Assembly (NCBI GenBank): GCA_017601225.1
Contig: JAFNIX010000002.1
Location: 52,903-116,902 of the forward strand
Direction: 5' to 3'
DNA length: 64,000 bases
Source of the DNA: Candidatus Brockarchaeota archaeon
Lineage (GTDB): Archaea > Thermoproteota > EX4484-205 > JAAOZP01
This document shows positions 5,151 through 56,589 of this stretch, in pieces (positions within the stretch are counted from its first letter, which is position 1; every line of letters starts with the position of its first letter). The notes beneath the pieces are model-generated. The model did not search any database. It was given only the letters and a program-made list of their open reading frames with translations, and had not been told where the DNA came from. The position numbers and the translations under genes were made by a program.

Positions 5151-6095
5151 CTACCCCTGTTTCACCGACGGTATGAGCGCGTTTAAAACTGGTTCAACCC
5201 ACCTATTGTTCGGGATATCGTAAAGTATGAAGTCGCTGTCAAACTGCCAGTATGCCCAGCTCCACCCTATTTCCTCAGCCAGCCTAGCCACGAAGCTGAG
5301 GTATCTTACCCTAGAATCCATATCGGCCCTGTCATATACTCCGAACTCTCCTAGGAAAATAGGCCTGTCATGCTTCTCAGACCACGCTTGAACCTTCTCG
5401 AAATCACGCATGATTGCCTTCCTCTCCTCCGGGGAGCCCGCCCACTTTACTCCAACCCTGTTCTCGCGGCCAGCCCATTTAGCACCCTGATGCGTGAAAT
5501 CCATAGGTTCATAGTAGTGCACAGTCACAATTATATTCCTGTCTTCCTCAGGTAGAGCCAGCCTGTCAAGGCCGGTTAAGCTGTTCCAAAGGGCTGGGCC
5601 TATTATCACAGCCCTATCCGGGTTAGTCTTGCGCACAATTCTAAGAACATCGATGAGAAGACGATTCCAGAGCTCAGGCGTAAGCTCCCCGTTGGGCTCG
5701 TTTAGAAGCTCGAAAACCAAGCTGTCAGGATAATTACTGTAAAGCTTCCCGATTTGATCCCAGAAGGCGAGAAGCCTATCCCTGTTTCCAAACGGATCCC
5801 TCCCCATTACTATGAACTCGTGGAAATCAATTATTGGCATCAGCCAGTTGCCCAGAGCCTGTTCAACCGCCCAATCCAAGGTTTCAAGCCACTCTTCTGA
5901 AAGCCTGTTTTCCTCACCAATAGCATCGTCGCGGAAAGGGTGTAGAGCGATACGCACATTATTGAAGCCGACGCTCCTTATCAGCCTGAAATGCTCACTC
6001 CTCATCCTCGCCATAAACCTGTTTTTCCAGACCGGGTCGTAACCCAGAATGTTAACACCCCTGCCAAGCCGCTCATTCTGCTTAAACACATCCAT
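5151..6095 (-). CDS. Glycoside hydrolase family 5 (cellulase-type), no signal peptide
   Basis: GH5 signatures: acid/base Glu in FELLNEPNGEL and nucleophile Glu in FLGEFGVY, plus HYY and W-rich C-terminus. It starts MDVFKQNERLGRGVNILG with no hydrophobic leader. Confidence 0.85.
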   Translation of the reverse strand: MDVFKQNERLGRGVNILGYDPVWKNRFMARMRSEHFRLIRSVGFNNVRIALHPFRDDAIGEENRLSEEWLETLDWAVEQALGNWLMPIIDFHEFIVMGRDPFGNRDRLLAFWDQIGKLYSNYPDSLVFELLNEPNGELTPELWNRLLIDVLRIVRKTNPDRAVIIGPALWNSLTGLDRLALPEEDRNIIVTVHYYEPMDFTHQGAKWAGRENRVGVKWAGSPEERKAIMRDFEKVQAWSEKHDRPIFLGEFGVYDRADMDSRVRYLSFVARLAEEIGWSWAYWQFDSDFILYDIPNNRWVEPVLNALIPSVKQG

Positions 6096-6121
6096 TTTTA
6101 ATCAACCCCAGTACTCCATGC

Positions 6122-10556: not shown

Positions 10557-10794
10557 CCAGCCTGTGGTTTAAAAACTAGTATTTGCATCCGAATTACGCG
10601 AATATATCAATAGAGGGCACTCGACGTAGAAAGCCTTGACCCTCAAATTATCGATATCCGTGGAGAAGACTTGCTTGAAGCGATGAAGAATAGGGCTGGC
10701 ACTAACTTTACCAAGAATCATGGCTCTTTATAATGCGGCCCACCCATTCATTCTTGTTTTCCCGCTTCCCTATTCGTCATATCGCATCGCTGCT

Positions 10795-12132
10795 TCACCT
10801 TCTTGTAGTCCAGAAGGTACTCCATCCGCCGAAATGCCCGCCGCTTTTAGAGTCCCCCGGTAGAAGATCCATATAGTTTTCAGCAACCTTCCTGAATGCT
10901 TGAGCATACTCTTCAATGATCTCAGGCCTGTAATGCTTGAACCATGGGACGGTGAAAACGCGCTCCTGCACGCTCTCTGAAACTGGGAGGCTACCCGGTG
11001 GCTGTCTCACATCAACACCCGGAGGAGAATTCGCTATGCGCGTCGGTCTACCCTGGTTGTAGACATCTATCTCGTTGAACAAGGGGTGTAAATGCAGCGG
11101 GAGGTTGCAGCCAGGGTAGCATGGGGCCCCCTCGGCCCTTACTGCTTCGCAGAACCGTTGAACAGACAGGCCTCCCAACTCCTCCGGATGGTAGATGCCA
11201 TGGGGCGCATACCACCCACCCTTGGTTGACCCAGAGTCTTTCGGAGGCCTATGGCTCCTGATCCCGGGGACGCCTTCAAGCAGGTCCCAAAAATAGTTCA
11301 TGGCTTTATCTATCTCAGCCATAAGCATCGGGTAATGCTTCAACTGGACACGGCCGACTGCCGAGGTTAACTGGTGCATCCTATACTTGTACCCTCCCCA
11401 GGGCAGCCCTGCTCCACGCTTAAGGTCCTCCAATGTTAAGACGAACCCGTGGCGCTCGTAATGGCCGAAGGCCACAGCCCTTTCATAAACCCGCCTGTCA
11501 TTCGTAGTCATCATTCCTCCCTCGCCGCAAGGCAGGGATTTGCCGGACATTAAGGAGAAGCCTGCAGCATCTCCAAGGGTTCCAACCATTCTACCCTTGT
11601 AAAGAGCACCATGGGCGTGGGAACAATCCTCAATCACCGTCAAGCCGTTTCTCTCAGCTATCTTCATTATTGCATCCATATCTGCCGGCATTCCCAGGTA
11701 GTGGACAACCATTATCGCCTTAGTTCTCGGAGTAACCCAGCGTTCAATATCCTTAGGATCGATGCAGAGCGTTTCAGGATCGATGTCGGCAAAGACAACT
11801 GTTCCACCGAGCGAGTATACCTGTAGGCAGGAGGCCCAGTAAGTGATGCTTGGACAAATGATCTCGTCCCCCTTCCCTATGCCTACTCCGAACATCGCGC
11901 TATGTAGAGCAGCGGTTCCAGTATTATGCGCTAACGCGTATTCCACGCCAAGCCATCTGGCGAACTCCTCCTCGAATTTTTGAGTCACATCTATGTCCGA
12001 CATTTTCCCAGCGCGAAGCACTTCTAAAACAGCATCCTCAACCTCGCCAGTTATAATTGGCCAAGCGAATATCTCTCTATGTTCAGATCCCACACTCTTA
12101 GGACCCCCTAAGAGGGCTAAACCGCTTTCCAA
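10795..12132 (-). CDS. DegT/DnrJ/EryC1/StrS-family PLP-dependent sugar aminotransferase
   Basis: Family pattern GDEIICPSITYWAS, DCSHAHGA and the Lys-containing SGKSLPCGEGGMM. Apparent TTG start at 12132. Confidence 0.75.
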   Translation of the reverse strand: MESGLALLGGPKSVGSEHREIFAWPIITGEVEDAVLEVLRAGKMSDIDVTQKFEEEFARWLGVEYALAHNTGTAALHSAMFGVGIGKGDEIICPSITYWASCLQVYSLGGTVVFADIDPETLCIDPKDIERWVTPRTKAIMVVHYLGMPADMDAIMKIAERNGLTVIEDCSHAHGALYKGRMVGTLGDAAGFSLMSGKSLPCGEGGMMTTNDRRVYERAVAFGHYERHGFVLTLEDLKRGAGLPWGGYKYRMHQLTSAVGRVQLKHYPMLMAEIDKAMNYFWDLLEGVPGIRSHRPPKDSGSTKGGWYAPHGIYHPEELGGLSVQRFCEAVRAEGAPCYPGCNLPLHLHPLFNEIDVYNQGRPTRIANSPPGVDVRQPPGSLPVSESVQERVFTVPWFKHYRPEIIEEYAQAFRKVAENYMDLLPGDSKSGGHFGGWSTFWTTRR

Positions 12133-12330
12133 CCTTTAAACAACAATTAATCTGTTTCAGCGGATAGTTAAATATTTCCGCTCCCATACTTTCACGCTGG
12201 CCTCGAATACTAGGATTCTACAACGCTCAGCATTCACAGACGTCTGAAACCAGCTTAGGGATACGCGTATCTTCCGTTGAAACTTCAGTTCGAATACTTA
12301 AATAGGTTGCTTCGCGCAGACTGTAAATCA

Positions 12331-13227
12331 ATGATCATTGATATTCACGCGCACTGTTCCCCCAGACGAAGCTGGCTTACCTATGATCCGGTTAAAGACC
12401 AGTATATACCGTGGATAACAGTGTCTGAACTCGTTAAAAGAATGAAGGAAGAGGGAATAGACATAACGGTGATTCTCCCACTGCCAAGCCCGGAAAGCAC
12501 CATAGAGCCAGTGACCAGCCGCGATGTTATAGAGTTCTGCAAGAAATACGGGAGCAGGCTAATCCCTTTCTGCAACCCGGATCCGAGGCTAAACGCCGGC
12601 TCGGAGAAAAGTCTAAGATTCATAATGGAGGAGTATAAAAACGAAGGGTGTAAAGGCGTGGGTGAGATAACTGCCAACATATACTTTGACGACCCAAGGG
12701 CCCTGGGCCTCTTCAGAGTTTGCGAGGAATTAGAGCTCCCCGTAATATTCCATATTGGTCCCCACCTAGGTGGCTGCTACGGCCTTGTGGATGAGCCTGG
12801 TCTGCCTAGGCTGGAGAAGTGTCTAAAAATGTTCCCAAGCCTGATATTCATAGGACACTCTCAACCATTCTGGGCTGAGATATCTGGAGACCTTAAGCCG
12901 GAGGATAGGAACAGTTACCCAGCTGGCAGGGTTGCTCCAGGCGGGAGGGTCGTCGACCTTTTCAGAAGCTATCAAAACCTTTACGGTGATCTTTCGGCCG
13001 GCAGCGGGTATAATGCTATTTCGAGGGACCCGGAGTTCGGAGTCCAATTCTTAGAGGAGTTTCAAGACCGGTTGATGTTCGGAACAGACTTGGACATGCC
13101 GGGTCAAAACATACCCCAACTGAAATACCTGCGCAGCCTGAGGGAAGAAGGAAAAATATCCAATGAAACTTATGATAAAATCATGTATAGAAATGCTGTG
13201 AGAGTCTTGAAGCTTGACTTAGAGTAG
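12331..13227 (+). CDS. Amidohydrolase-family metal-dependent TIM-barrel hydrolase
   Basis: MIIDIHAHC metal-binding HxH start, internal GHSQPF and a terminal GTDLD. The ATG at 12331 is preferred over the TTG at 12277. Confidence 0.7.
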   Translation: MIIDIHAHCSPRRSWLTYDPVKDQYIPWITVSELVKRMKEEGIDITVILPLPSPESTIEPVTSRDVIEFCKKYGSRLIPFCNPDPRLNAGSEKSLRFIMEEYKNEGCKGVGEITANIYFDDPRALGLFRVCEELELPVIFHIGPHLGGCYGLVDEPGLPRLEKCLKMFPSLIFIGHSQPFWAEISGDLKPEDRNSYPAGRVAPGGRVVDLFRSYQNLYGDLSAGSGYNAISRDPEFGVQFLEEFQDRLMFGTDLDMPGQNIPQLKYLRSLREEGKISNETYDKIMYRNAVRVLKLDLE

Positions 13228-13246
13228 GCACTAACACTTGTTCAAA

Positions 13247-14290
13247 TCAGGTTAACGGAAGCCTCACCATCTCGCTACTTTTACTGGACTGGTAGATGGC
13301 GTTGATGATTTCGATAGACTTCCTTCCCTCCTCGCCAGAAATCTTCGGCTCCCTGTCCTCCAAGACGGCTTGGGCAAAGTCCCTTATTGATGCTGCATGG
13401 TTCAACGGGGGCGCGGCCTCCGGCCTAGCCCATGTCTCCAAGCCTACCTTAGCCTCCTTCTCAGAATATGGTTTCTCCCCCTTTATGTCTAACAGTTTAA
13501 TCACTTCCCCCTCTATGATTGCTGTGCCATTCGTCCCGTATAACTCAAGCTCAGTTGGGAAACCGGGATAAAGTGCTGTGCTAGCCTGAACAAGGCCGAG
13601 AGCACCGTTCTTAAACCTTAGGGTAGCAACAGCAAGGTCCTCAACCTCTATGTTGTGGAAAACAGTGCCGCATTGAGCCCAAAGGTATTCTACAGGCCCC
13701 ATGATCCAGATGAGTTGGTCCAAGGTGTGAATAGCCTGGTTTATCAGTGCTCCACCACCCTCGGTGGCCCATCTCCCCCTCCAAGGGCTTTTATCGTAGT
13801 ATTCTCTCACCCTGAACCATTTTACGGTTGCCTCCCCATAGAAAAGCCTGCCCAGCCTACCAGTGTCCACCGCCTCCTTTACCTTGAGGACACTGGGGTC
13901 GAACCTACCCTGAAGGTTTACACCAAGCTTCACGCCAGCCCTCCTAGCCCTCCTTATCATCTCATCAGCCTCCCTTATGTTTATAGCCATGGGCTTGTCA
14001 ACAAGCACGTTTACACCGGCCTCTATGGCATCTATAGCCATAGGGAAATGAAGATAGTGCGGTGTTGAAATGAAAACAGCGTCAACCCTCTCCTTAACGA
14101 ATAAATCCCTATAGTTGAGAAAATACTTTATTCCGAACTCCTCAGCAGTTTTCTTAGCTAAATCCTCAACAACGTCGCTTACGGCAACCGGTTTGACAAT
14201 TCCCTCCTTCTCCTCGAGGAGCTTCATGGCGCGGAGGGCAAAGTTGGCCCCTACGCCGGCGCCAACTATGCCAAACCGAACCTGCTTCAT
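13247..14290 (-). CDS. Gfo/Idh/MocA-family oxidoreductase
   Basis: Rossmann start MKQVRFGIVGAGVGANF, STPHYLHFPMAIDAIEAGVNVLVDKPM core, and a C-terminal alpha/beta domain. Confidence 0.85.
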   Translation of the reverse strand: MKQVRFGIVGAGVGANFALRAMKLLEEKEGIVKPVAVSDVVEDLAKKTAEEFGIKYFLNYRDLFVKERVDAVFISTPHYLHFPMAIDAIEAGVNVLVDKPMAINIREADEMIRRARRAGVKLGVNLQGRFDPSVLKVKEAVDTGRLGRLFYGEATVKWFRVREYYDKSPWRGRWATEGGGALINQAIHTLDQLIWIMGPVEYLWAQCGTVFHNIEVEDLAVATLRFKNGALGLVQASTALYPGFPTELELYGTNGTAIIEGEVIKLLDIKGEKPYSEKEAKVGLETWARPEAAPPLNHAASIRDFAQAVLEDREPKISGEEGRKSIEIINAIYQSSKSSEMVRLPLT

Positions 14291-14405
14291 AGAATCTTTA
14301 TTTGAAAAACAGGCTTAAAAATATTAAACGGCTTATTCCCTGCAGCCTATGGGAACCGTGGTTTAAAAAAGCCCTGGTTTCTTCAGGCGGATATGTAACT
14401 GCAAA

Positions 14406-14675
14406 CTAGAGGGAGGCTTTCAATTTTTCAAGATACTCCTTTATGAACCTGAGGTTTTCAACCGTCTTAGGTATGAAATTCGCGTATGCTAAGCTCCCTC
14501 GATATCCTTCCTCAACGCCTTTTATAATTTCATCAATATTTTCCTTCGTAATATTTTTCAACTGTTCCTTCAGCATTTCTAAACCTTTTATAGCGTTACT
14601 AGCTTCCGAGGAGAACATCCTGTAGGGTTTCAACTCAGCTATGCATTCATCTATCTTAGACTCAACCTCAGACAT
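14406..14675 (-). CDS. Hypothetical small helical protein (89 aa)
   Basis: ORF only. Charged helical composition, co-directional with upstream genes. Confidence 0.4.
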   Translation of the reverse strand: MSEVESKIDECIAELKPYRMFSSEASNAIKGLEMLKEQLKNITKENIDEIIKGVEEGYRGSLAYANFIPKTVENLRFIKEYLEKLKASL

Positions 14676-14780
14676 TTAGACCACCACGTGTAAAGCGTTT
14701 TTGAAAGTATTAAATCTTACTTTCGAGAAAAACGTATAGAGAAACATGGTTTTTCATCCATATCGAAATAATCAGCGGGT

Positions 14781-43433: not shown

Positions 43434-44300
43434 ATGGAATGCAGATCCCTAGTGTCTCTCGCCTCGATCCTGTTAGTACTCTCGGTTAGCTTCTCCACGT
43501 CTTTCTCCCAGAAGCCCTTTACCGTCAAAAAGGCGATGCTGACGATCTATAGGGATGGGAACGTTTGCGTTGAGGTGGAACTCTCCATCGATGAATCAGA
43601 ATTTTCAATCATGCTCCCGCTCCTAACATCCTCGGACAAGGTCTGGGAGATCATTGTTCTCAACGGAACAGGTGTCCTGCTGGACTACGAGCTAAACGAT
43701 TACAATATAACCATATACTCCCTAGGTTCCACAGACTTGACGCTTGAGTACTACACCTCCGCCCTTACCTTTAAGGAAGCTGACCTCTGGACCATCAAGT
43801 TCAGCTCACCATTCGAGCTTACAGTGGAGTTTCCGGTGAATGCAACAATCATCTACTTCAACAGGGTTCCCTCCGCCATAAGAACCAAGGACGGGGTAAT
43901 CTCCCTCGATCTTCAACCGGGGGAATGGGAGATCAGCTATCATATTCCGATAGCATCGTCCCAGCCCCCTACCCCTGGTTCACAGTCTGACCAAAAAACC
44001 ACACAACCCTTGCCTATTTTGCAGACAGGCATAATCGTCATCGCTGTCTCCGTATCCGCTTTAGTTATAGCCTTTGCCGTTATCAAGGGTAAGAAGGGGT
44101 TTAGGGGGCTAAGCGGTGAGGAGGCCGAGATAGTGCAGTACCTAATGGAAAGGGGAGGAAGGGCCCTTGAGGCCGAGCTCAGGGAAAGATTTCCCTACAT
44201 ACCTAGGACAAGCATGTGGCGCATGATAAGGCGCCTGGAGAAAAAGGGCATCGTCAGCGTGAGGAAGGTAGGTCTACAAAACGTCGTTGAGCTCAAGTAG
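43434..44300 (+). CDS. Membrane-tethered winged-helix protein with extracellular N-terminal domain (COG2512-like)
   Basis: Signal-like N-terminus, a ~170-aa beta-rich ectodomain with sequons, a Pro/Gln/Ser linker, and a TM (GIIVIAVSVSALVIAFAVI). The cytoplasmic wHTH is IVQYLMERGGRALEAELRERFPYIPRTSMWRMIRRLEKKGIVSVRKVG. Confidence 0.65.
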   Translation: MECRSLVSLASILLVLSVSFSTSFSQKPFTVKKAMLTIYRDGNVCVEVELSIDESEFSIMLPLLTSSDKVWEIIVLNGTGVLLDYELNDYNITIYSLGSTDLTLEYYTSALTFKEADLWTIKFSSPFELTVEFPVNATIIYFNRVPSAIRTKDGVISLDLQPGEWEISYHIPIASSQPPTPGSQSDQKTTQPLPILQTGIIVIAVSVSALVIAFAVIKGKKGFRGLSGEEAEIVQYLMERGGRALEAELRERFPYIPRTSMWRMIRRLEKKGIVSVRKVGLQNVVELK

Positions 44301-44452: not shown

Positions 44453-45448
44453 ATGGCGTGGAAAAAGGCGATCTATGCACCTGTGATATGCGTGCTGATG
44501 ATACTATCCTTAACCCCTGTTGCAATACCCCTGTCTCCGAACCCCGAAGAATCTGGCAACCTGGCTGAAAAGGCTGGAAGGATACTCTCCGTAACGGAAT
44601 CGGCTAAGAATGCAGTACAGAGGCTGATAACCTATGTTGAAGAAAACGAGACCGCAACAGCCCTCATTGAGAAAATGGGTTTAATGGATGATTTTGAAGG
44701 CAACATAACGCGATTTGAAGATGGTGTTTCAATCCTTGAGGATGCACGTGGTTCCTTCGAGAAAGGAAACTATGAGGATGCCATATCTAAAGCGATGGAG
44801 GTGCTAGCGATATTCAGGGAAGTCTTTAGAAACATCAACAGGATCCTCTGCTCCGCGAAAATCAAAAGTCACGAGATCATGGATGGACAGGGCCTCATCG
44901 TAGCCATGAACACGGCTTTAAACAGGGTCGAGAGGCTGGAAAAGCTTGCAGAAGCCCTTAATGAAAAAGGCGTTGATGTGAGCGACGTTATGGGGCTATT
45001 GAATCAAGCCAGAGGAAAATTAAACATCGATGAGGCGAGGAAGCTAATCGAACAAGGAGACGTCTCAACCGTCGCGCGCAACCTTGCAGAGGCCAACAGG
45101 CTCATCGCAGAGGCTTCGCGCATACTGAATGCAAAAAACAGGAGACTAATCGCCGAGAGGATAAAGCAATACCTTGAGCGCTTGCGAGCCAAGGTTAGGG
45201 AAAGGCTCCGGGAGATGGGCGTTACCGAGGAGGAGCTCTTTAGAGGTTGGAACTTCGAGGAGTTCTGGAGCACGCAGTGGGAAGCGTTAGAGAGGATCCG
45301 AAGCCGCATAGAGGAGAGGAGATTCAACGATATACTATCCGATTTGAGGGAGCTCGGGAGGAAAATCAACGAGTTCAGACACGAGTTAGAATTTAGAATT
45401 CAGCAGCGTAAGGGTACGCCTGGACCTAAACAAGGGAATAAGCCCTAG
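44453..45448 (+). CDS. Secreted or N-terminally anchored coiled-coil protein (331 aa)
   Basis: Hydrophobic N-terminus (VICVLMILSLTPVAI), then long heptad-like charged helices. No family recognised. Confidence 0.55.
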   Translation: MAWKKAIYAPVICVLMILSLTPVAIPLSPNPEESGNLAEKAGRILSVTESAKNAVQRLITYVEENETATALIEKMGLMDDFEGNITRFEDGVSILEDARGSFEKGNYEDAISKAMEVLAIFREVFRNINRILCSAKIKSHEIMDGQGLIVAMNTALNRVERLEKLAEALNEKGVDVSDVMGLLNQARGKLNIDEARKLIEQGDVSTVARNLAEANRLIAEASRILNAKNRRLIAERIKQYLERLRAKVRERLREMGVTEEELFRGWNFEEFWSTQWEALERIRSRIEERRFNDILSDLRELGRKINEFRHELEFRIQQRKGTPGPKQGNKP

Positions 45449-45838: not shown

Positions 45839-46212
45839 TTAGTGTCTTTCTATTATTCTTATGCGTTTACGAGTTACTATTATTAGTTTACCTGTATGCT
45901 TTGACAAGTCCAATTCTTGAATCAGCTTATTCATCGCTCTTATTAGTTCGACTGGTGTCGGCGGCTTATGCGTAATAGTATTACTGTCAGCATCCCCTTG
46001 TATAGCTTGTGATAGATGTATCCGAAGTCCTTGTCAAAAGTCACTATGATAAGCTTCTTACTTACTGCATACTCGGCTACAACAGTGTCCTTTGCTCCTT
46101 TAAGCCCTACGTCGCTAAGCCTGTAGGCGGTAAATCCTGCAAGCCTAATGGCGTCTCTAAGCGATACTGGAAGGTTTTCGTCAATAAGGAAAGCAGGCTT
46201 ACTCGAGTGCAA
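45839..46212 (-). pseudogene. DUF5615-family (Mut7-C/PIN-like) toxin gene interrupted by a frameshift
   Basis: The ORF-track frame (45943-46212) gives FLIDENLPVSLRDAIRLAGF...IIVTFDKDFG...TVILLRISRRHQSN*. A shifted frame continues without stops as PPTPVELIRAMNKLIQELDLSKHTGKLIIVTRKRIRIIERH* to 45839, restoring the family-typical C-terminus and length (~124 aa). The shift is near 45957-45965. Confidence 0.6.
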
Positions 46213-46432
46213 GCAGTATCTCTTTCTCCGTCAGCCTAGCTGCATAAAGCAAAGCAGCCTTAACATCCTCTAAGGAAAGCTCAGGGTACTCTTTAACTAT
46301 TTCTTCAGGCCTCATTCCGTTTGCCACGAGCTCAAGTATCAAGGCCACCGGGATCCTAGTACCCTTAATAACTGGTTTACCACCCAGCTTCTCCACGTCG
46401 ACTTCAATCCTTTCGAGTAAAGGCTCAGCCAT
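46199..46432 (-). CDS. DUF433-family antitoxin-like protein
   Basis: GGKPVIKGTRIPVALILELVANGMRPEEIVKEYPELSLEDVKAALLYA is the canonical DUF433 pattern. It overlaps the downstream DUF5615 gene by 14 nt. Confidence 0.8.
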   Translation of the reverse strand: MAEPLLERIEVDVEKLGGKPVIKGTRIPVALILELVANGMRPEEIVKEYPELSLEDVKAALLYAARLTEKEILLALE

Positions 46433-47235: not shown

Positions 47236-48705
47236 ATGGTTAAACGCTCTTGGCTGGGGGGCCTGCTTGTTTTACTTTTCACAGTAATGCTCGCTTTGCT
47301 TTCGACTAGTTTAAATTCTCCACTACGCGGCCCCTTGGTCTCAGCAGCTCCATCGTCCTACTTTTGGAGCAGCCTAAGCAGGAATACGGTGGCGGTAACC
47401 TATTCTGTTGACGAGAGGACATGGTACGGTGGAACAGACTATCTACACGTTAAGGCTAGTGGACAAGGCGTGTACGGCGACACCAAGACAGCTATAGCGA
47501 CAGTAACAATACCCGCTGGTTTCTCGGCAGGAATCTATGTTTGCGGCGACGATCGTAACCCTGTTCCCAACGGATGGACTGTTCAGGAGAAGTATCTAAG
47601 GCTAGAGGTTGACGGGGTCAGGGTCTACGAGCTGGGTAAAGAATACTGGTGGGCGAAATGCTACTCTAAGGCTGCAACCCTATGCTCAGGTACGCACGAG
47701 GTTAAGCTGACAATAGGCATCACGGTTAAGGTTTCCTCAAACTTTGAGGAACGCGACCTGCATTGGGCTTCGATGGACATAAGGCTTGAGGGAAGCGGAA
47801 CGATAACGGCTGAATCCCATACCGCTGAGGCGACCCTAGATGGGAGTGTAACGCACGTCTTCACTTTCATGCTTCCCCAGGCATCTGGCGTGAGAAACAT
47901 GAGTTGGACGGCTAGGTGGAACGGGCTTGAGGAAACTGGCTGCGGAGTCCCGGGAAGCATGCAGAAAGCAGTGTTCTCAGGGGTTAACAGGGGCAGCTGG
48001 GTTTTCACAAGCCCGGTCGTAATCAGGGTTGGCGAGTCTGTCCCGTTGGTAAGCGTTGGAGACGGTTACGCTATCGACGCTGTCTACGATGAGGGCTCGG
48101 GGGAAACTGGAATCCGTAGGATCGCTGTAGCCATTAGTAATGGTGACGAGGCAGGGTTTACCTCAGCAAGATATCTCGTAACCGAGATTAAGCGTGAAAC
48201 AAGGGTCGTGGGTGGGACACTGATAGGCTCCGCAATATGGGCGAACAGCGGTTCAACCATCGTGTTCAACCAGACTGTAAGCTACTATGCTTCAAACGGC
48301 TGGGTTACTGAGAGGATTAGGGGAGGTGTTGAAACAGGCTCAGGCGTAGTGAAGGCTTTCCAAGAGCTTAATGTTTCTAGAAAAGTTGGTTTCTCCTCGA
48401 AGAACAGGAATGATGAGCTCGAACTGACGGTAAGGATTCCTCTGCTAACCATGGTTTTCACCCACATCGTAGTCTCAGCTGAGAGGAACGGTGACAATGT
48501 TAATGTTAGGGCCTTCTGGGCCCACGATAACAGCCCCATAGCAGGGTTAAGGGTAAAGTGTTTCGAAACAGACCAGAGCGGAGTAACCGATCTGAACGGC
48601 AGGGTCTCGTTCAGAATAGCCGGCTCAGGATTCGAAGCAACCATCTACCCCTCTGAAGGAAGAAACGGGATAACCGTTTACGAGAAGGCGAGGGTAAGGC
48701 TATGA
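47236..48705 (+). CDS. Secreted beta-rich protein (489 aa) with C-terminal CarboxypepD_reg-like domain
   Basis: Signal-like N-terminus (LGGLLVLLFTVMLALLSTS). C-terminal IAGLRVKCFETDQSGVTDLNGRVSFRIAGSGFEATIYP resembles the prealbumin-like carboxypeptidase-regulatory fold motif. The stop overlaps the next start (ATGA). Confidence 0.6.
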   Translation: MVKRSWLGGLLVLLFTVMLALLSTSLNSPLRGPLVSAAPSSYFWSSLSRNTVAVTYSVDERTWYGGTDYLHVKASGQGVYGDTKTAIATVTIPAGFSAGIYVCGDDRNPVPNGWTVQEKYLRLEVDGVRVYELGKEYWWAKCYSKAATLCSGTHEVKLTIGITVKVSSNFEERDLHWASMDIRLEGSGTITAESHTAEATLDGSVTHVFTFMLPQASGVRNMSWTARWNGLEETGCGVPGSMQKAVFSGVNRGSWVFTSPVVIRVGESVPLVSVGDGYAIDAVYDEGSGETGIRRIAVAISNGDEAGFTSARYLVTEIKRETRVVGGTLIGSAIWANSGSTIVFNQTVSYYASNGWVTERIRGGVETGSGVVKAFQELNVSRKVGFSSKNRNDELELTVRIPLLTMVFTHIVVSAERNGDNVNVRAFWAHDNSPIAGLRVKCFETDQSGVTDLNGRVSFRIAGSGFEATIYPSEGRNGITVYEKARVRL

Positions 48706-51700
48706 GCAAACATAATAGGCTTAGCGGTTTCTTAAACCTTGCGAAGGCTTGGCCGATATGTCTGGTTAACGCTGCGACAGCATACTTCACGATAGTCGGC
48801 TTGCTTCTCCTCTTAACACCCGATATCGCTGAGCTAATAGTCAACGGCGTTCCAACGAGTAGGCTGATTCTAACCACGGCTGTTGCATTCGTTTTCCTTA
48901 ATATGCTTCTCGTGTTAACCTACGCTGCATCACTCTTCACCGTTAAGCGTGAGAGCATGATGGATGGCTTTAGGAGGAATGGCGGAAGGCTGATCAAGGG
49001 GCTCCTGCTTCTCTCGCTCTCCAGCCTTATCTGCCTAGCCTTAATCGTCTTCGCCGGCTATAGTGCTGTTTCCCCGGCAAGCCTTTCCCAGGACGCGTTT
49101 AAACTTCTAGCGATGAACTATGGAGCAGGATTAGCAGTCTCGATCCTACATGCTCTTCCACTGGTCTGGCTGGTGAAATCTTTAGCAGGCGAAAAAATAC
49201 GGATGGGGCTGGGCAGGTTCCTCTCCCTGGTGGTGTTGGTCTTCCTGATGCTCGTTGCCCTCTCATCATACGGTTTCCTGGGGCTGTTCACAGACTCCGT
49301 GCTTATTCCAACGGCTGTAAGCCTCATTGTTCATGCTGGCTGGGGGAAGGCTGAGGACAGGGGGAGCAGTCTCTCCCGGCTTAAGAGGAGGAGCACGGGG
49401 AGGGCGGTGATTGGAATCATTCTAAGCATGCTTGTTCTAAGCACCGGAACCCCTTTCAACAGCATCCTGCTCAGCCTGGGTGAGGAGTCGAGCTTCAGCG
49501 AAGACGGGTTGAAAAGCCTTGTCTCAAGGGCTGTTGCAGAAGGCTGGAGTAATGGGGAGCTTGCCTCAGCGATAAGAAGCAACCCGGGGCTAAGCATGCT
49601 TTCAACCTACGACCTTAGCAGCATAACTATTGAGAGGGATGATGCTGGAAGCGTCAAGGTTACAATACCGCTCACCGCCTCAGGCTACGGAATATATAGG
49701 AAAACAGGCAATAAGACCACGGTTTACGACGTTTACGCTCAAACCGGTTCAAGCGAGCTAGTTATAGGCGATAAGCGCTACGTCCTAGCCGGCTACAGGA
49801 GCAGCGGGGAAACCTACGGCCCGTTTGAAAACCTCGATGACGCGCTGGCCATGGAGAATGAGGCTAAGGCTTACGCTAACGCCACGAGGATCACTTCCAA
49901 CACTGTTCTGAAGACTGAGACCAGGGAGGCGGCAAGGGTTGAGACCAAGTACGCTGTCGTCCCAACAGTCAGGGTAGTGAAGTATGAGGTGCTGGGAGAG
50001 TTTGAAACCTATGAGGCTGCTCAAAGCTACCTCAGCCTCTACCCGGGACTTCTGTGGACAGCGGAGGTGAAGACTCTTGAGAAGCAGGTCTGGGTACACT
50101 CCTACAGGCTTGAATTCCTCGAGGAGACAACCAGCTATTACAGGGCTTTGATGATGAGCAGGGACGGCTATGTTGCGGAGGAGGTTAGGAGCCTTGTGAC
50201 TGTCTACGTTTTCGACAGGTGCAGCCCGCTCGGGAGGCTGATGGTCCTCGACAGGGTTGAGATCGCGAAGGAGGATTTCGAAAGAATGCTTCAAACAGGA
50301 GAGCTTGCGAGGAGTGTTGACGAGCATGGTGAAGAATACTACTATTACTCTTCGCAGGGGCCGTATTCAGCAAGGCTCTACAGGACTGGGGTGAAGCAGG
50401 TTGAAGGAAGCGTCGTAGCTTGGAGAATATACCGCAGGATCGACACTTCTCACTGGGAGACTAGGAGGACTTACCGGGTTGTTGCTCCAGACGGTTATGA
50501 GGAGGGGAAGGTTAGCATAGATGAGTTGCCGAGCTACGCGAAGGGCTTCCCGTCTAGGAGCGATGCTGCGGACTCTAAGAGTGTTGTTGAAAACATGCTT
50601 GGAAGCTGGGCTGACAGCCAAGGTGTGACTCTGAGGTTCTGCGAAGTGGAATCGTACGAGCAGAATGTTTCTGGGGTTGAAACCGTAACCAGGCAGGTTA
50701 AACAGTACTATGTTACTGCGACATTCCTGAAGCCTGTTTACGATGTTTACGAGCTTCAACCATACCACAGGGTTTGGAACGAGACGAGTTACGAGGAAAC
50801 ATGGGGCTGGGTTTTCAAAGGCTATGTTGACGAGAAGCCTGAGAACTATGATGCGTCGACATGGGTTTACTCGCCTGAGGTGGTGAACTGGACTTCTAAG
50901 ACGTACTTGGGAATATTCACCGAGTGGGAAACGCAGGTATTAATGAGCGCTGACCCGCGCTACGTCGCTGAGAAGCATAACACCACGACGATAACTAGGG
51001 AAGTATCTTACTACGATGTTTACAACGCAACCTGGAAACTGTTATACCACTACTACAAGTATGTTGTCCACCCCACTCATGAATATATCGCTAACGGGAA
51101 CATTTCCACCGGCGGAGGATGGGCCTTCGAAAACTTGGGTGACGCTAACGGAGAAGTATGCTCCTCAGCCTTTCGCAGTAGCCCGAATAGTTTGAGAATA
51201 GTTTCTGGGAGTGGAAGAGGGGCCTGGAGGCAAACATTCTACTATGACGCCGGGGGCTCAAGCCCAGTGTTAGACTTCTGGTATGTTTTAAGGGGGAGTG
51301 GAGCCGTTGCGGTGAAGAAGCCAGATGGCTCAGCACAAGTCTTCACCCTAGGAGAAAACAGTGGTTGGACTAGGTTCAACAGGGATTCTGGTGATGTCTT
51401 CAGTCAAGCGGGATACTACACGATATCCTTCGTAGCTTCTGAGAACAGCGAGCTCCTTGTTGACGATGTTAGCCTACATGTAGGCGGCTACGGTGAATGG
51501 GTCTACCAGGGTGATGTTGAAAACAGGCCTGAAAACGTTCCTTCCAACGAGAAGTATGAAGCCTCCTATAAAATTGAGAACAAGAGGCTCATAGGAACCT
51601 TCGACGAGAGCGTTGCAAACCAGTATCCCACCCCGCCCTACATAAAGGAGTTTAAAAAGAAGGAGACTGTTAGCTATACTGTAGACCTCTACAAGCTATA

Positions 51701-54700
51701 CTACTTGGAGGGCGGGTTCGTCAAGTATAAGGTTTTCCATTGGGAGAAGCAGCAGGTTCCAATAGTTGTTAGGAAGGAGGAGTCCGGGGCAAAATGGGTC
51801 TTGGTTGAGAGCGGTGTGGAAACAGGATTCGGCGGGCTAATGCTGGTTGAGCAGAACGTGCCGGAGGACGTTGTTAAAGCGAAGTATAATGATCCTGTGA
51901 AATACCTTCTTGTCCCCAAGGTTGTTGAAGCCGGGGAGGCTCTTGAGCTTGTGTGCGAAACCCTCGATGGGAGTCTTGCGAGAAAATACGAGAAAGAGGG
52001 CTACATAGTCAGAAACACCGAGGTCTCAACCGGAAACCCGATAAGGTTCAGCGTGAGAATGCTTCAAGCAACCGTTGAGAAGAATGAGATGGGTATGCTT
52101 GGCAAGCAGAACACTTTGAGAGTCGCCATAGCTAACCCGACTCAGGATACTCTGGCCTACCAGGTTACCATAGAGGCGGAGAACAACGAGATTGTTGAGG
52201 AAATGCTCCCAGAGGGACAGGCTTTCCACATGCCTGAGGCGGTCAGGAGGATCACCATGGTTCCGGTTGCCGAGCCCAGTAGCTGGCTCCTAGCTGTTCA
52301 GCCTGGTGGAGCGTCATACTCGCTGGAGTTCGCAACCTGGGTCAGGAGGACGGAGGAGAAGGAGTATGGTAGTTATAATGTGAACACTGCTTACTGGCCA
52401 ACCGGCTCAGTCGGATGCAGCTTCACGGTTAAAGTGTTGAGAAACGGGAGGCTGGTTGCTAAGCAACGGGTTCTGGAAACCTTCGACAGCTTCAACGTGG
52501 AAAGAGCAGTGGCGAGACACCCGTTTGAGACAGTGGGCGGGTTCCTAATGGGCTTCGGGGCGATGGCGGCGATAACAGCCTTATCCTTCTCCCTGCCCCA
52601 GGTCACCATAGGTTTAGCAGGCCTGTCCCTCACCATGTCTCCCTTCACCTTAGTGGGGCTCGCGGCCGGCACCGCCAGCGCCCTAATAGTCTACGCTCAA
52701 ACCGGGAGCGGTGTTGAAGCCTTAACGTACAGCCCGCTTGGAGTATTCGTCGCACCCGTAAGGGCCTTGGCGGACCCTACTATGGATGATAGTAGGAGAG
52801 CGTCGATAATAGGCGCGGTGATAGGTGCTCCACTCGGCGTCCTCGTGGGCCAGAGGATAGCTCTGGATGTCGCGATGCTAAGGATGCCTAGCGAGCTCAG
52901 GAATGATCCTAAGGTCTACGGCTTCCTATACGCGGCTGAGAAGAACTATGGCACGGCTTTCGCCTCAACCGTAGCCGGATACATTGGGAAGCTCTACCCT
53001 TATGCTGATGTCCCCGACGCCAAGGGCCTTGTAGCATTGCTTCTAAGCGACGCTTTGAAGAGCAGGCAGGACGCTTTCTACATCGCGAGCATGCTTGAAA
53101 AAGCCTCCGGCATGGGTGAAGAGTTTCTCAGTAGGCATGCAGGCAGCGTGATGGAGTGGCTCGGAAGCCCACTGCTGAGATACAAGCTTGCCTCCCTCCT
53201 CCAGCTGAGCCCGGATGAGGCCCTCCAGATCTCCCAGAGCGTTGGGGGAGACTTCGTGCAAATGATTCGCCTCGCGGAGTTCAAGCATGCTTGGAACCAG
53301 CTTTCCAAGCTCGGCCCAGACACGGTTAGAGTGTTAAGCTGGAGCCCGGACGGGATAGAGGTGGGGGTTGAGAAGAGCCTCGCAGGCCAGCTCTACCCGG
53401 GTATTCAGAAGGGCAGCGTCGTGGAGTTCGAGTTCGCGAGGGGGAGCATTGTCCTCAAAGGATTCTTGACATACGCGGAGGAAAAAGCCCTTGGAGACTC
53501 TAAGTACCTCGTCTTCGCGTTCAAGGCTGAGGAAAGAATCCCATATGTTTTCGACCTCCTTAGGGAGGACATGCAGGCAATACCCGGGCAGCAGGCTGAG
53601 AAAACATTCGGCTTCAACGCTTTCAACCCTTCAAAAGGGAAGCTCACTCTAGACAAGGGTAGCCTGAGCGTAGACGGGAGCGTGAGGTTTAGCGACGGAA
53701 TGGTTCTCAAAATGGATGACCCCGGGGTCATGCTTGTCCCCAGCGAAAACCCGTTGGAAACCGGGACGCTTAACGAGGTGCTTCTGCAGGGGAGGATAAG
53801 CGGGACCAGCGTGGTTGTTGATGAAGATGGGGTGGTTAAAGCGTTCCACCAAGGAGATTATCTGCCCGCTGTCGTCACGGCGAGCACACTGGGGCTCCAG
53901 CTTGGAATACTTGCGAAGCCGAGCGGTGGAGTATTGACAATCCCTGGGGAAAGCCTTAGGGCGAGAGGCATTCTTGACCCAAGCTTGGTGCATGTTGTCT
54001 ACCCGGATGGGGCGGCGGTGACAACCCTGTACACGGGTGGAAGCCTCCAGATACCTTTACACTCATACTTCTCCGGGGCTTTCCTAGGGGTTCAGGCGGT
54101 TGAAACAAGGGTTGTCTGGACTGAAACAATGGGGCGGAGGGAGTTCTACGCTCAGGTTGCCAGCACCAGCGAAATAATCGGGAATGCTCTCGGAAGAGGC
54201 TTTTCAGAGGAGTTCGTGGAGACATTGCTGCTGAGCGGGCTCACGGATTCTCAGGCGTTGGACATGGCTAACGAGCTTGTTAGGAACATTGAGTGGCTTA
54301 AAGCGTTCAGCAGCAGTAGGAGGATTGAGGCTGTCAGGAGGATAACGGAGTACGTTGTGAAGGGGGAGACCGCTGAGGAGGCTGTTGAAAAAGTCAGGAG
54401 GGAGAGCGAGGAGTATGTTAGAAACCTTGAGCTTGAGACGATAGAGTTCTACAACTCCATCCCCGACACCATGCTTGCGAACGAGGTTCTAAGCCTGATA
54501 AAACATATTCAGGAGAGGCTTGGGCCTGAGGCTGCGAGATGGCTCCTGGAGGTTTTGAAGAGGACATATGTGGAAACCCTTGCCTCAACCCTTGGCGATA
54601 GGGAGGCTGCGGACAATAGGCTTAGAAGCGTCGTCGAAAAAGCGTTCAAGTATCCTGAGAGCGTAACCCAAGGATGCGCACTATCCTCAGCAGTAGTCGT

Positions 54701-55841
54701 TGAACTGATGGAGAAGAGTGTTGAGGAAGCGTGGGAGACGCTTAACAGACTGGTCAATTATCCTGATGGCTTAAGAGTAAAATGCGTCTTAAAACCACAC
54801 GAAGATCGTTTCACAATACATATACCAGAAGAACAATTAGCTTCGTACTTAGGCAGTGAAGCCTGCTGGATAAGAATGGAGGTTAAAGGAACAGTTCTGT
54901 ACAAGAAGTATAACCCAACTTTCAATTTCGATGTTCCGCCAGGGCTCGGTGAAGCTGGCGAGGAAATAGAAATAACCATTAGGAAAATCACTCCCTACGA
55001 GTTTATCAGGACAGCAATCACGGAAGGAAGAATGCCCTTCGACATAGAATTCTCACTCGAAAGATACTGGCTCGTCGTAGGAGATGGAAAGATAGAAACA
55101 TCCTTAAAGCAAGGTATGTATTACGACAGGGGAGACAAGGGGCCTGCAGTAGTCTTCATGATAAAAGACTGGCAGGGAGAGGAGCATGAGCTTAAACTAG
55201 TCTACAATTGGGATAGGAAATATTTATCCAAGATAATGATCGAGGACTTCAGACAGATCCAGGACGCAGAATACGATTCCGAAACCGGAATACTTACAAT
55301 AACATACTTGAAAGGCGACCATGCATCGGAACACCTGATATACTTAGAGAACCCAAAATCCGTTTTAACAAGGATGGTTGAAAAATTAAAAATCACCCTT
55401 AGCGAAGAACGCGAAGACACAAACCTTGAGGGAGACATCGGTGAGTATTATATAATGCTCTATAAGAGTGATGTAATCAAAGAAAAAGTATCTGAGATTC
55501 TGGGGGTTCCAAAGGACAAGATCAAGGTCGTCAAGGGTTATTCGAATTGGGGGCCGGACTTCTACGTTTACTGCGAAGGTAAGCTAGTGGCGATAATTGA
55601 TGTAAAAACTACTACGAAATCTAAGTATTATCCGGCGGAGAAACTGAAAGAGGCTAAAGATAGTCTGGAGAATAAATACTTCACTCGAGATGAATGGAAA
55701 GATCTCTTCAAAAAGGTCAAGTATGGGATTCCAATAGCAGTCTTTCTTAAGAACCTAGATGAAATAATTCAGACAGAGTTTTTGAGTGGGATAGATTGTA
55801 AGCTAGGGGAAGTGGTTGAAAATCCGAATTACGAGCCTTAG
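48702..55841 (+). CDS. Giant polytopic membrane protein (2379 aa) with CBM-like module and C-terminal PD-(D/E)XK nuclease-like module
   Basis: Uninterrupted 7.1-kb ORF. About 6-7 TM helices lie in residues 1-260, then a ~1000-aa hydrophilic region. That region includes a jelly-roll/CBM-like segment (residues ~798-927) and is followed by a second TM cluster (residues ~1278-1385). A ~1000-aa C-terminal region ends with E...GPD(x13)DVK. Confidence 0.8.
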   Translation: MSKHNRLSGFLNLAKAWPICLVNAATAYFTIVGLLLLLTPDIAELIVNGVPTSRLILTTAVAFVFLNMLLVLTYAASLFTVKRESMMDGFRRNGGRLIKGLLLLSLSSLICLALIVFAGYSAVSPASLSQDAFKLLAMNYGAGLAVSILHALPLVWLVKSLAGEKIRMGLGRFLSLVVLVFLMLVALSSYGFLGLFTDSVLIPTAVSLIVHAGWGKAEDRGSSLSRLKRRSTGRAVIGIILSMLVLSTGTPFNSILLSLGEESSFSEDGLKSLVSRAVAEGWSNGELASAIRSNPGLSMLSTYDLSSITIERDDAGSVKVTIPLTASGYGIYRKTGNKTTVYDVYAQTGSSELVIGDKRYVLAGYRSSGETYGPFENLDDALAMENEAKAYANATRITSNTVLKTETREAARVETKYAVVPTVRVVKYEVLGEFETYEAAQSYLSLYPGLLWTAEVKTLEKQVWVHSYRLEFLEETTSYYRALMMSRDGYVAEEVRSLVTVYVFDRCSPLGRLMVLDRVEIAKEDFERMLQTGELARSVDEHGEEYYYYSSQGPYSARLYRTGVKQVEGSVVAWRIYRRIDTSHWETRRTYRVVAPDGYEEGKVSIDELPSYAKGFPSRSDAADSKSVVENMLGSWADSQGVTLRFCEVESYEQNVSGVETVTRQVKQYYVTATFLKPVYDVYELQPYHRVWNETSYEETWGWVFKGYVDEKPENYDASTWVYSPEVVNWTSKTYLGIFTEWETQVLMSADPRYVAEKHNTTTITREVSYYDVYNATWKLLYHYYKYVVHPTHEYIANGNISTGGGWAFENLGDANGEVCSSAFRSSPNSLRIVSGSGRGAWRQTFYYDAGGSSPVLDFWYVLRGSGAVAVKKPDGSAQVFTLGENSGWTRFNRDSGDVFSQAGYYTISFVASENSELLVDDVSLHVGGYGEWVYQGDVENRPENVPSNEKYEASYKIENKRLIGTFDESVANQYPTPPYIKEFKKKETVSYTVDLYKLYYLEGGFVKYKVFHWEKQQVPIVVRKEESGAKWVLVESGVETGFGGLMLVEQNVPEDVVKAKYNDPVKYLLVPKVVEAGEALELVCETLDGSLARKYEKEGYIVRNTEVSTGNPIRFSVRMLQATVEKNEMGMLGKQNTLRVAIANPTQDTLAYQVTIEAENNEIVEEMLPEGQAFHMPEAVRRITMVPVAEPSSWLLAVQPGGASYSLEFATWVRRTEEKEYGSYNVNTAYWPTGSVGCSFTVKVLRNGRLVAKQRVLETFDSFNVERAVARHPFETVGGFLMGFGAMAAITALSFSLPQVTIGLAGLSLTMSPFTLVGLAAGTASALIVYAQTGSGVEALTYSPLGVFVAPVRALADPTMDDSRRASIIGAVIGAPLGVLVGQRIALDVAMLRMPSELRNDPKVYGFLYAAEKNYGTAFASTVAGYIGKLYPYADVPDAKGLVALLLSDALKSRQDAFYIASMLEKASGMGEEFLSRHAGSVMEWLGSPLLRYKLASLLQLSPDEALQISQSVGGDFVQMIRLAEFKHAWNQLSKLGPDTVRVLSWSPDGIEVGVEKSLAGQLYPGIQKGSVVEFEFARGSIVLKGFLTYAEEKALGDSKYLVFAFKAEERIPYVFDLLREDMQAIPGQQAEKTFGFNAFNPSKGKLTLDKGSLSVDGSVRFSDGMVLKMDDPGVMLVPSENPLETGTLNEVLLQGRISGTSVVVDEDGVVKAFHQGDYLPAVVTASTLGLQLGILAKPSGGVLTIPGESLRARGILDPSLVHVVYPDGAAVTTLYTGGSLQIPLHSYFSGAFLGVQAVETRVVWTETMGRREFYAQVASTSEIIGNALGRGFSEEFVETLLLSGLTDSQALDMANELVRNIEWLKAFSSSRRIEAVRRITEYVVKGETAEEAVEKVRRESEEYVRNLELETIEFYNSIPDTMLANEVLSLIKHIQERLGPEAARWLLEVLKRTYVETLASTLGDREAADNRLRSVVEKAFKYPESVTQGCALSSAVVVELMEKSVEEAWETLNRLVNYPDGLRVKCVLKPHEDRFTIHIPEEQLASYLGSEACWIRMEVKGTVLYKKYNPTFNFDVPPGLGEAGEEIEITIRKITPYEFIRTAITEGRMPFDIEFSLERYWLVVGDGKIETSLKQGMYYDRGDKGPAVVFMIKDWQGEEHELKLVYNWDRKYLSKIMIEDFRQIQDAEYDSETGILTITYLKGDHASEHLIYLENPKSVLTRMVEKLKITLSEEREDTNLEGDIGEYYIMLYKSDVIKEKVSEILGVPKDKIKVVKGYSNWGPDFYVYCEGKLVAIIDVKTTTKSKYYPAEKLKEAKDSLENKYFTRDEWKDLFKKVKYGIPIAVFLKNLDEIIQTEFLSGIDCKLGEVVENPNYEP

Positions 55842-55848
55842 GAAAGCT

Positions 55849-56589
55849 TCATCGTTTATAGATTTCCCATTTCCTTTCCTTCTTAAGCCTATCTGCCTCT
55901 TCCTCAGTCAGTGCGACTAAAGCCAATTTCCCATCTCTTGTAGCCTCTGAAAATGCATAGTATTGATATCCCGTATCCCTGATTATTTTATTTATATCCC
56001 AAACAAAGGTATCGTAGAGGTAATCCCTATGAAAGAAGATATTGACAGTATGTTCTTTCATCCCGTACTTGAAGCGAACCGTGAATGAGCTCCACATACC
56101 TCTACCCCGCCACAATTCATCCTGTGGTGGATTCTCCTCATGCTCGTTCAGCTCTTCGCTGAGTATGATTGGCTGAAAGCTCCCCCTCGATATCTTCGTA
56201 AGCCTCTTGATGATGCCGATGCCAGCCCCTTTAATGACATCCGTCTCCGCATCCTGAACCATAACCCTCTTGGTATCGAAGCAGGCCATCTCATAGTCCA
56301 AAGAAGCATCGCTCGTCTTCATCCATAAATCCTCCTTTTCCTTAATGGATTCGATGAGAACGGCCCCATAACTACTCAGCTTCAGCTTATCCCGTTTCCT
56401 CTTATATTCCTCATCGCTCAAGTCCCCATCCTCCCAAAATATACTATAATCTATCTCTCCTCTGAGAATCTTTTCGAAAATCTCCTCTGAGGATAAGTTA
56501 GAGTAATCCTGAAAGAAACCCATCTTCCTAAGGTAATCTATCGAATCGACGAATCTCTTCCTTAGCTCAGGGTTCATCACTATAACCAC
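55849..56589 (-). CDS. Hypothetical acidic protein (246 aa) convergent with the giant gene
   Basis: ORF with a GTG at 56589 or an ATG at 56577 (MNPELRKRF). No family recognised. Its stop lies 7 bp from the stop of the giant gene. Confidence 0.6.
   Translation of the reverse strand: MVIVMNPELRKRFVDSIDYLRKMGFFQDYSNLSSEEIFEKILRGEIDYSIFWEDGDLSDEEYKRKRDKLKLSSYGAVLIESIKEKEDLWMKTSDASLDYEMACFDTKRVMVQDAETDVIKGAGIGIIKRLTKISRGSFQPIILSEELNEHEENPPQDELWRGRGMWSSFTVRFKYGMKEHTVNIFFHRDYLYDTFVWDINKIIRDTGYQYYAFSEATRDGKLALVALTEEEADRLKKERKWEIYKR

Follow-up and report, generated by a model that had tools for sequence, protein, structure and literature searches.

A restriction-endonuclease-fold domain at the recombining C-terminus of giant Thermoproteota/Brockarchaeota membrane proteins and its possible place in an archaeal conflict module

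The genome of a Candidatus Brockarchaeota archaeon (assembly GCA_017601225.1) encodes, in a stretch of 64,000 nucleotides (nt) (contig JAFNIX010000002.1, positions 52,903 to 116,902; hereafter the window, in whose own numbering positions are given), a protein of 2379 amino acids (aa), which raises the question of what the last ~145 residues of so large a protein do. An earlier note on this DNA, made from the sequence alone, had recognised in these residues the signature of a PD-(D/E)XK nuclease and had proposed a defence or toxin function for the locus. Residues ~2240-2379 almost certainly form a genuine PD-(D/E)XK (restriction-endonuclease-fold) domain, as judged by fold homology. The domain lies at the end of a variable C-terminal cassette, next to a partner gene. 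The arrangement is best read, with a probability of roughly 0.55, as a conflict module in which the partner would serve as neutraliser or regulator of the nuclease, the catalysis, the toxicity, the inhibition by the partner and the role in conflict all being inferred.

The giant open reading frame (ORF) is intact, and the region 55404-55841 on its forward strand corresponds to aa 2235-2379. Translation of 55404-55850 (EEREDTNLEGDIGEYYIMLYKSDVIKEKVSEILGVPKDKIKVVKGYSNWGPDFYVYCEGKLVAIIDVKTTTKSKYY...GIPIAVFLKN...NPNYEP, followed by the stop) is identical to the C-terminal residues quoted in the note, and the codons which it had assigned to D2286, D2300 and K2302 are exact. The ORF and its terminal domain comprise the following features:

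48702..55841, + strand: giant ORF, 2379 aa, intact by translation; about seven transmembrane (TM) segments at aa 19-253 and a second, central TM cluster at aa 1278-1387, with ~1000 aa between the two (aa 254-1277), then a C-terminal half of ~1000 aa with the nuclease domain last
55419..55787, + strand: PD-(D/E)XK core, aa ~2240-2362 (structure model, Foldseek and profile links)
55443..55445, + strand: codon of E2248 (GxxGE, helix alpha1), an acidic residue that may serve the metal site or the structure
55557..55559, + strand: codon of D2286, the Asp of 'PD', directly before strand beta2; Asp in 57 of 59 copies
55599..55607, + strand: codons of D2300-V-K2302, the (D/E)xK of strand beta3 (D2300 55599-55601; K2302 55605-55607)

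The motif alone is weak evidence, because the loose pattern D-x(8-25)-[DE]xK occurs 17 times in the giant protein; once a hydrophobic strand context is required, a single occurrence is left, at 2286. Conservation was therefore counted over 59 aligned homologous copies of the domain, the mean column identity of which is 21%. The D2286 column holds Asp in 57 copies, the two exceptions being misalignments with an Asp nearby, and it is the sole invariant column of the nuclease alignment (A2). Position 2300 is acidic throughout (55 Glu, 4 Asp), with Asp in the window protein, while position 2302 is Lys in 54 copies and Glu in the other five. These three residues are the best-conserved positions of the domain, so that the motif on which the note had relied is maintained among homologs. 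At E2248, 50 copies could be aligned, with Glu in 30, Gln in seven and Arg in at least three, and G2244, G2247 and a Gln in the helix following ExK are likewise common. The C-termini of homologs of several very different sequence types all retain G..GE / [PV]D / (D/E)xK.

An AlphaFold2 (AF2) model of aa 2210-2379 (m8da44a43b93e), built on a nine-sequence alignment, has a mean predicted local distance difference test score (pLDDT) of 92 and a predicted template-modelling score (pTM) of 0.86, and its alpha1-beta1-beta2-beta3-alpha2-beta4 topology is that of the canonical PD-(D/E)XK core. The elements are alpha1 at 2240-2267, beta1 at 2274-2278, beta2 at 2287-2291, beta3 at 2294-2304, alpha2 at 2312-2326 and beta4 at 2341-2349 (H31-58, E65-69, E78-82, E85-95, H103-117 and E132-140 in model numbering). 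E2248 falls within alpha1, D2286 just ahead of beta2 and D2300 and K2302 within beta3, which is the order of helix Glu, Asp and D-x-K that the note had read from the letters. Judged from its residues, the E...D...(D/E)xK site of the window domain appears intact, and the domain is probably an active nuclease.

Two variants of the domain were observed among its relatives. Glu takes the place of the (D/E)xK Lys in the five copies mentioned above and in several further cassettes of a type designated type 5 (carriers being the cassettes at loci L009, L012 and L013 and proteins P0012, P0023, P0032, P0074 and P0079), and these ExE copies have either a variant or an inactivated site. P0024 (247 aa) contains two successive partial nuclease domains, of which the first follows one cassette type (Q-type) through alpha2 and the second follows type 4 from beta2 onwards, and it looks like a within-domain recombinant of two cassettes. 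The extreme C-terminus (aa 2372-2379, window 55815-55838) carries a tail motif, NP(N/Y)(Y/I), which is kept in Q-type and type-2 cassettes that are otherwise ~20% identical and could be a docking or packing element.

Profile and fold matches of the domain converge on the PD-(D/E)XK superfamily, in agreement with the fold that the note had assigned. The top Foldseek matches in the Protein Data Bank (PDB) are weak (E 0.025 or worse, TM-score 0.2-0.35) and are nearly all PD-(D/E)XK nucleases, among them Hjc, a lambda-exonuclease-like protein, YaeQ, EcoRV, the La Crosse and lymphocytic choriomeningitis virus (LCMV) cap-snatching endonucleases, McrC, EcoT38I and HsdR. The best match in BFVD is an unnamed protein (E 2.5e-4), followed by herpesvirus UL24, COG5377 and entries named PD-(D/E)XK. 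A weak match of the window domain to the Rex repressor was judged spurious. A profile of nine C-termini (A1), compared with 1.84 billion representative proteins, retrieves 78 relatives, mostly C-terminal fragments of similar proteins, and finds the outgroup protein P0087 with an E-value of 7.9e-5. P0087 in turn scores above the Pfam cutoff for PDDEXK_9 (38.6 against 25.5 bits), and its alignment with A1 by hhalign (90% probability, E 1.6e-6, 123 columns) brings the motifs into register. This profile link to the superfamily is indirect, because it runs from the family profile through P0087 to PDDEXK_9. The window domain stays below every Pfam threshold, as do most family members. Below threshold, 48 family members match HSDR_N (11/48) and PDDEXK_9 (8/48) as well as, frequently, PDDEXK_4, NERD, SfsA, VRR_NUC, UPF0102, MmcB, PDDEXK_1, PDDEXK_2 and YhcG_C, and most of the commonest matches belong to the PD-(D/E)XK clan. 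Against the PDB, the family profile finds SfsA, Card1, Cas4 and BpuSI, each aligned on D...ExK.

The resemblance to Hjc, Mrr and NucS that had been proposed for the domain holds at the level of the fold only. Hjc (PDB 1gef) is the best PDB match by Foldseek and shares the same minimal alpha-beta-beta-beta-alpha-beta fold and E / D / ExK arrangement, but the match is weak (E 0.025, TM-score 0.25-0.32, 14-22% identity), and Hjc is a small stand-alone dimeric resolvase, unlike the window domain. A comparison of the family with an Hjc fragment from locus L003 by hhalign gives a probability of 7%, and no match to Hjc, Mrr_cat or NucS is found among the best 25 of the 47 Pfam families matched. Membership of these three families was rejected on these grounds. 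Together with the PDDEXK_9 link, these results place the window domain in a new family inside the superfamily, one that is not yet represented in Pfam or NCBIfam although the superfamily itself is very well known. PDDEXK_9 (PF08011), HSDR_N, NERD, PDDEXK_1/4 and SfsA have the core topology and the placement of D...ExK in common with it, whereas the window domain is set apart from PDDEXK_9 and its neighbours by its position as the C-terminal tip of giant membrane proteins, a long alpha1 with GxxGE and the NP(N/Y)Y tail.

Sixteen cluster-level homologs of the full-length giant protein (P0001-P0016) were found, only in metagenome-assembled genomes (MAGs) of Thermoproteota/Brockarchaeota, and none of the 16 bears a Pfam domain or an annotation. 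These homologs were retrieved with the full-length query; a word-index search with the C-terminal 249 aa alone returned nothing, itself included. Their alignment divides the giant protein into a conserved body and a variable end:

54624..54713, + strand: junction motif, aa ~1975-2004, RSVVEKAFKYPESVTQGCALSSAVVVELME, from 11 aligned full-length homologs
54714..55838, + strand: variable C-terminal cassette, 'Q-type', aa ~2005-2379, consisting of a type-specific middle and then the nuclease domain (alignment)

Over the first ~2000 residues the homologs are 50-90% identical. They diverge abruptly right after the junction, with its consensus L(R/K)xVVExxF(K/R)YPES..GC..ELM, and identity in the last ~375 residues is 8-32% for three other cassette types; in 100-aa windows, the values drop from 40-77% before the junction to 8-32% beyond aa 2000. 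Giant proteins carry at least four cassette types, with more occurring elsewhere, and all those examined end in one homologous nuclease domain. From these alignments, the cassette appears to be swapped by recombination at the junction motif among otherwise conserved giant proteins. A second mosaic block was observed at aa ~1300-1700 (window 52600-53800), where P0012, P0013 and P0014 are 17-38% identical to the window protein and 40-88% identical on both flanks; recombination is thus not confined to the C-terminal cassette.

Cassettes also exist apart from giant proteins, as orphan pairs with a partner gene, of which two families, here called A and B, are distinguished below. Locus L001 encodes a 252-aa type-2 cassette (5584-6342) with an ankyrin-repeat (Ank) partner gene, L008 a 384-aa Q-type cassette (13622-14776, = P0018) with a 233-aa partner A and L011 a 307-aa cassette (9672-10595) with partner A. 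The stand-alone cassette of L008 is 43% identical to that of the window over 328 aa. At L013/L014 the nuclease domain ends an 824-aa acidic soluble protein, again with partner A, and this protein is a second type of carrier for the tip. This Glu-rich, extremely acidic carrier lies in an apparent operon (9702-14032, - strand) with a 396-aa protein that matches Metallophos_2 weakly and a 222-aa protein. Decayed cassette copies are present at L018 and L026. At L012 (9672-10670, - strand), a 332-aa ORF was observed in which the first ~240 aa correspond to a RadA/Rad51 recombinase (HHH_5 + Rad51) and the last ~90 aa to the end of a type-5 cassette. It is convergent with a partner A gene, and at the same place the related genome of L011 has the plain 307-aa orphan cassette; the L012 ORF is either a real fusion by deletion or an assembly chimera.

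In the window, the giant ORF is flanked by two genes that recur at other loci:

47236..48705, + strand: 489-aa gene with an N-terminal signal/anchor sequence, the stop of which overlaps the start of the giant ORF (ATGA)
55849..56589, - strand: partner A gene, 246-aa ORF (242 aa from the likely start Met at 56577), convergent with the giant ORF and 7 nt from its stop

An adjacent partner gene is present in 13/13 hand-inspected cases. Q-type and type-5 cassettes pair with a convergent partner A, and types 2-4 with a co-directional partner B. Partner A homologs lie adjacent and convergent to a nuclease-domain gene at L001, L004, L007, L008 and L009-L014, those of the Q-type cassettes (window, L001, L004 and L007) comprising 230-246 aa, with a tandem duplicate in L001. 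The partner B gene often overlaps the cassette gene and carries a ~200-aa domain, either alone or behind Ank repeats; in L002 this domain is situated 2.4 kb downstream, ahead of a beta-propeller. When 185,579 species-representative genomes were scanned with the alignment of partner A (A3), 47 loci in about 15 MAG species emerged. In 18 of 26 intact copies, a convergent nuclease-domain ORF ends no more than 70 nt away, and two more copies adjoin decayed cassettes. Three others (L043, L047 and L053) have a convergent neighbour in which a G-E...D...ExK tail is visible by eye, the weak profile support for these tails (PDDEXK_9 E 0.032; hhalign 14%) allowing them to be counted as possible only. About 20 of the 47 loci are pseudogenes, broken by frameshifts or stop codons, which points to fast turnover. 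Partner A is multi-copy in some genomes, its loci numbering up to 10 in Brockarchaeota GD2_1 and seven in S1_Bin_MAXBIN__053 (L015-L061). Conservation within the family is comparatively high, many residues being invariant, and the AF2 model of partner A has a pLDDT of 93.

The maintained active site, the recombining tip, the neighbouring gene, the orphan and decayed copies, the multi-copy state and the restriction to few lineages together underlie the reading as a conflict module. In this module, a divalent-metal-dependent nuclease effector would harm DNA (or RNA), the adjacent partner (here the 242/246-aa protein on the opposite strand) would neutralise or gate it, and the two would constitute a toxin/immunity-type module built like a polymorphic toxin system. 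The polymorphism of the cassettes, their linkage to a partner and the orphan copies lend independent, if circumstantial, weight to the defence or toxin function suggested in the earlier note. As to where the nuclease would act, action in the cytoplasm of the producer itself, as a defence, abortive or addiction module, is tentatively and slightly favoured over delivery to other cells as a toxin, which is doubtful. It is likewise doubtful, although conceivable, that the locus represents a new type of archaeal contact-dependent polymorphic toxin system. There, the giant envelope-spanning protein and a co-transcribed, secreted 489-aa protein would deliver interchangeable nuclease tips to neighbours, partners A and B would be two new immunity families and the orphan pairs would form a reservoir for toxin switching via the YPES..GC..ELM junction.

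The closest known parallel is found in the polymorphic toxins of the CdiA-CT/CdiI and Rhs paradigm (Zhang et al. 2012, PMC3482391), which have a long conserved body and a variable C-terminal tip in common with the window system, as well as a tip of restriction-endonuclease fold, cassettes that stand alone and a small gene next to them. Compared by published motifs, the set GxxGE / D / ExK / Q of this family matches those tabulated for the Tox-REase toxin families, including 'GxxxE, IxD, ExK, Q' for Tox-REase-7 (PMC3482391). Of the features of polymorphic toxins (PMC3482391), the conserved body with a variable tip, the stand-alone cassettes and the adjacent small gene are present here, but no known delivery domain was found in the giant protein, and all the cassette types examined end in the one homologous nuclease domain. 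In contrast to its bacterial counterparts, the window system is archaeal, shows no known secretion or trafficking domain and has cassettes on soluble proteins too, and whereas classical polymorphic toxins swap unrelated toxin domains, the cassettes described here are all of one fold. Partner A also differs from the immunity genes of polymorphic toxins in being convergent and not tightly co-varying. Given these missing features, the convergence, the loose co-variation and the soluble carriers, the module is described as working like a polymorphic toxin/immunity or toxin/antitoxin pair and is not filed as a member of either. The polymorphic toxin systems of archaea have been described as few in number and as probable acquisitions from bacteria (PMC3482391). 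In Thermococcales, the VARTIG module is centred on a large protein with a C-terminal region rendered hypervariable by recombination and has variable downstream genes, an organisation that has been compared to that of polymorphic toxins (Makarova et al. 2021, PMC8416519). VARTIG resembles the window locus as an archaeal locus around a large protein with a recombining C-terminus (PMC8416519), but its variable part is an immunoglobulin (Ig) domain and not a nuclease, it belongs to another lineage and involves other proteins, and no homology between the two was detected.

Several observations weigh against a conflict module. All cassette types share one fold, and partner A is convergent, at times overlapping the 3' end of the cassette, and not co-transcribed downstream. 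It does not co-vary as tightly as specific immunity proteins should, because it is ~45% identical between Q-type and type-5 loci, the nuclease domains of which are <20% identical. The searches revealed no domain for secretion, release or processing, and the cassette also occurs on soluble proteins devoid of a signal peptide (824 aa at L013 and 384 aa at L008). The replacement of the ExK Lys by Glu in 5/59 copies also counts against the reading, as do the null results of the database searches: the window domain has no significant sequence match in Pfam, NCBIfam or the PDB and no PDB Foldseek match with E below 0.025, while Foldseek finds no significant fold match for the partner A model (a COMMD-like match with E 0.013 and TM-score 0.16 was left uninterpreted). 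In PADLOC-DB 2.0, which covers known anti-phage defence systems, neither the giant protein and its 489-aa neighbour nor partner A, the stand-alone cassette or the 206-473-aa downstream proteins have a meaningful match. Apart from a weak E2 match (E 0.0017) of the 206-aa protein of L006, only the Ank repeats of partner B fusions match in that database, to generic Ank-containing models.

The alternative that survives best, although it is unlikely, is a housekeeping or other non-conflict nuclease: a membrane-anchored PD-(D/E)XK enzyme working at the envelope, for instance in repair, in the import or export of DNA or in the handling of chromosomes or plasmids, with the partner as its cofactor or regulator. 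In favour of this are the conserved catalytic residues and the conservation of the partner family, the many invariant residues of which are what would be seen in a protein with an activity of its own. The location of the locus amid ordinary chromosomal genes (P-type ATPase, CPSase) and the strict conservation of the secreted 489-aa protein upstream also fit. For a housekeeping enzyme, however, recombination into at least four cassette types at a sharply defined C-terminal point is unexpected, as are orphan pairs of cassette and partner, up to 10 loci per genome and many pseudogenes, and the family is limited to few hot-spring lineages.

More improbable still is a domain in which the fold was kept and catalysis lost, leaving a terminal module by which a structural giant protein would bind DNA, oligomerise or dock its partner. 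The change of the ExK Lys to Glu, recurrent in type-5 cassettes, is compatible with this, as are the presence of Glu at the helix position in only 30 of 50 copies and an Asp in the window protein where 55/59 copies have Glu. At a mean column identity of 21%, conservation is nevertheless highest at the Asp, the acidic residue and the Lys, as in an active site that is being maintained. BamHI, moreover, belongs to the PD-(D/E)XK enzymes and is active with a Glu where the Lys would stand. The last alternative, a D...DxK string arising by chance and devoid of structural or functional meaning, could draw on the abundance of the loose pattern and the want of a direct significant database match, but is effectively refuted by its conservation over 59 copies at about 20% overall identity, by a confident AF2 model of canonical topology with the residues at the canonical places and by weak matches that converge on one superfamily and by an hhalign match (E 1.6e-6) to a PDDEXK_9 member.

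Beyond clustered regularly interspaced short palindromic repeats (CRISPR) and restriction-modification (RM), little is, to our knowledge, known of how archaea fight each other or their viruses. The interest of the domain resides in its setting, namely an archaea-specific giant membrane protein, a recombining nuclease cassette, two uncharacterised partner families and up to 10 loci per genome. It is the architecture of cassette, partner and orphan copies that adds value to the motif call and turns it into a testable hypothesis of an archaeal conflict system. Should the nuclease prove toxic and the partner neutralise it, the locus would represent a lineage-specific archaeal conflict system with two new inhibitor families, one of which (partner A) has a confidently predicted fold without a significant PDB match. 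Thermostable pairs of nuclease and inhibitor might also find use as tools. No description of the protein family was found in the literature searched.

The orientation of the giant protein in the membrane bears on where its nuclease would act. Hydropathy gives about seven TM segments in aa 19-253 and about three in aa 1278-1387, so that the label of membrane protein applied to this single intact ORF in the earlier note is a fair one; no Pfam, NCBIfam or PADLOC domain was found in it, the TM segments being its only recognised features. By TM count, which is a crude measure, the C-terminal half is suggested to be cytoplasmic. Sequons (N-x-S/T) number eight in aa 254-1277 (window 49461-52532; 5.9 expected) and zero in aa 1388-2379 (window 52863-55838; 2.9 expected), an asymmetry with P = 0.047 by shuffling which is repeated in four homologs (7-20 versus 0-1). 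The sequon counts were rejected as decisive for the topology, since the depletion is readable either way.

Upstream of the giant gene, a homolog of the 489-aa protein (64-81% identity) is directly adjacent and translationally coupled in every giant-gene locus examined, although the protein itself has no match in Pfam, NCBIfam or PADLOC. Scans with Rfam and for tandem repeats around the locus found nothing. Further upstream in the window, a 288-aa protein (43434-44300, + strand) has a signal peptide, one TM segment and a C-terminal winged helix (DUF7343/TrmB-like, sub-threshold), and a 331-aa protein (44453-45448, + strand) a signal peptide and a coiled coil; neither gene is kept beside the giant gene in other loci. 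A toxin-antitoxin-like pair is situated 0.8 kb upstream of the 489-aa gene (45943-46432, - strand), where a gene for a 77-aa DUF433 protein (Pfam E 2e-24) overlaps that for an 89-aa DUF5615/PIN-like protein (E 5.8e-17). At other loci (L005, L006, L009/L010, L011 and L012), MmeI/Eco57I-type or type I RM systems, GmrSD or a type III-B CRISPR system (Cmr) are encoded within 10 kb of a giant gene or orphan cassette.

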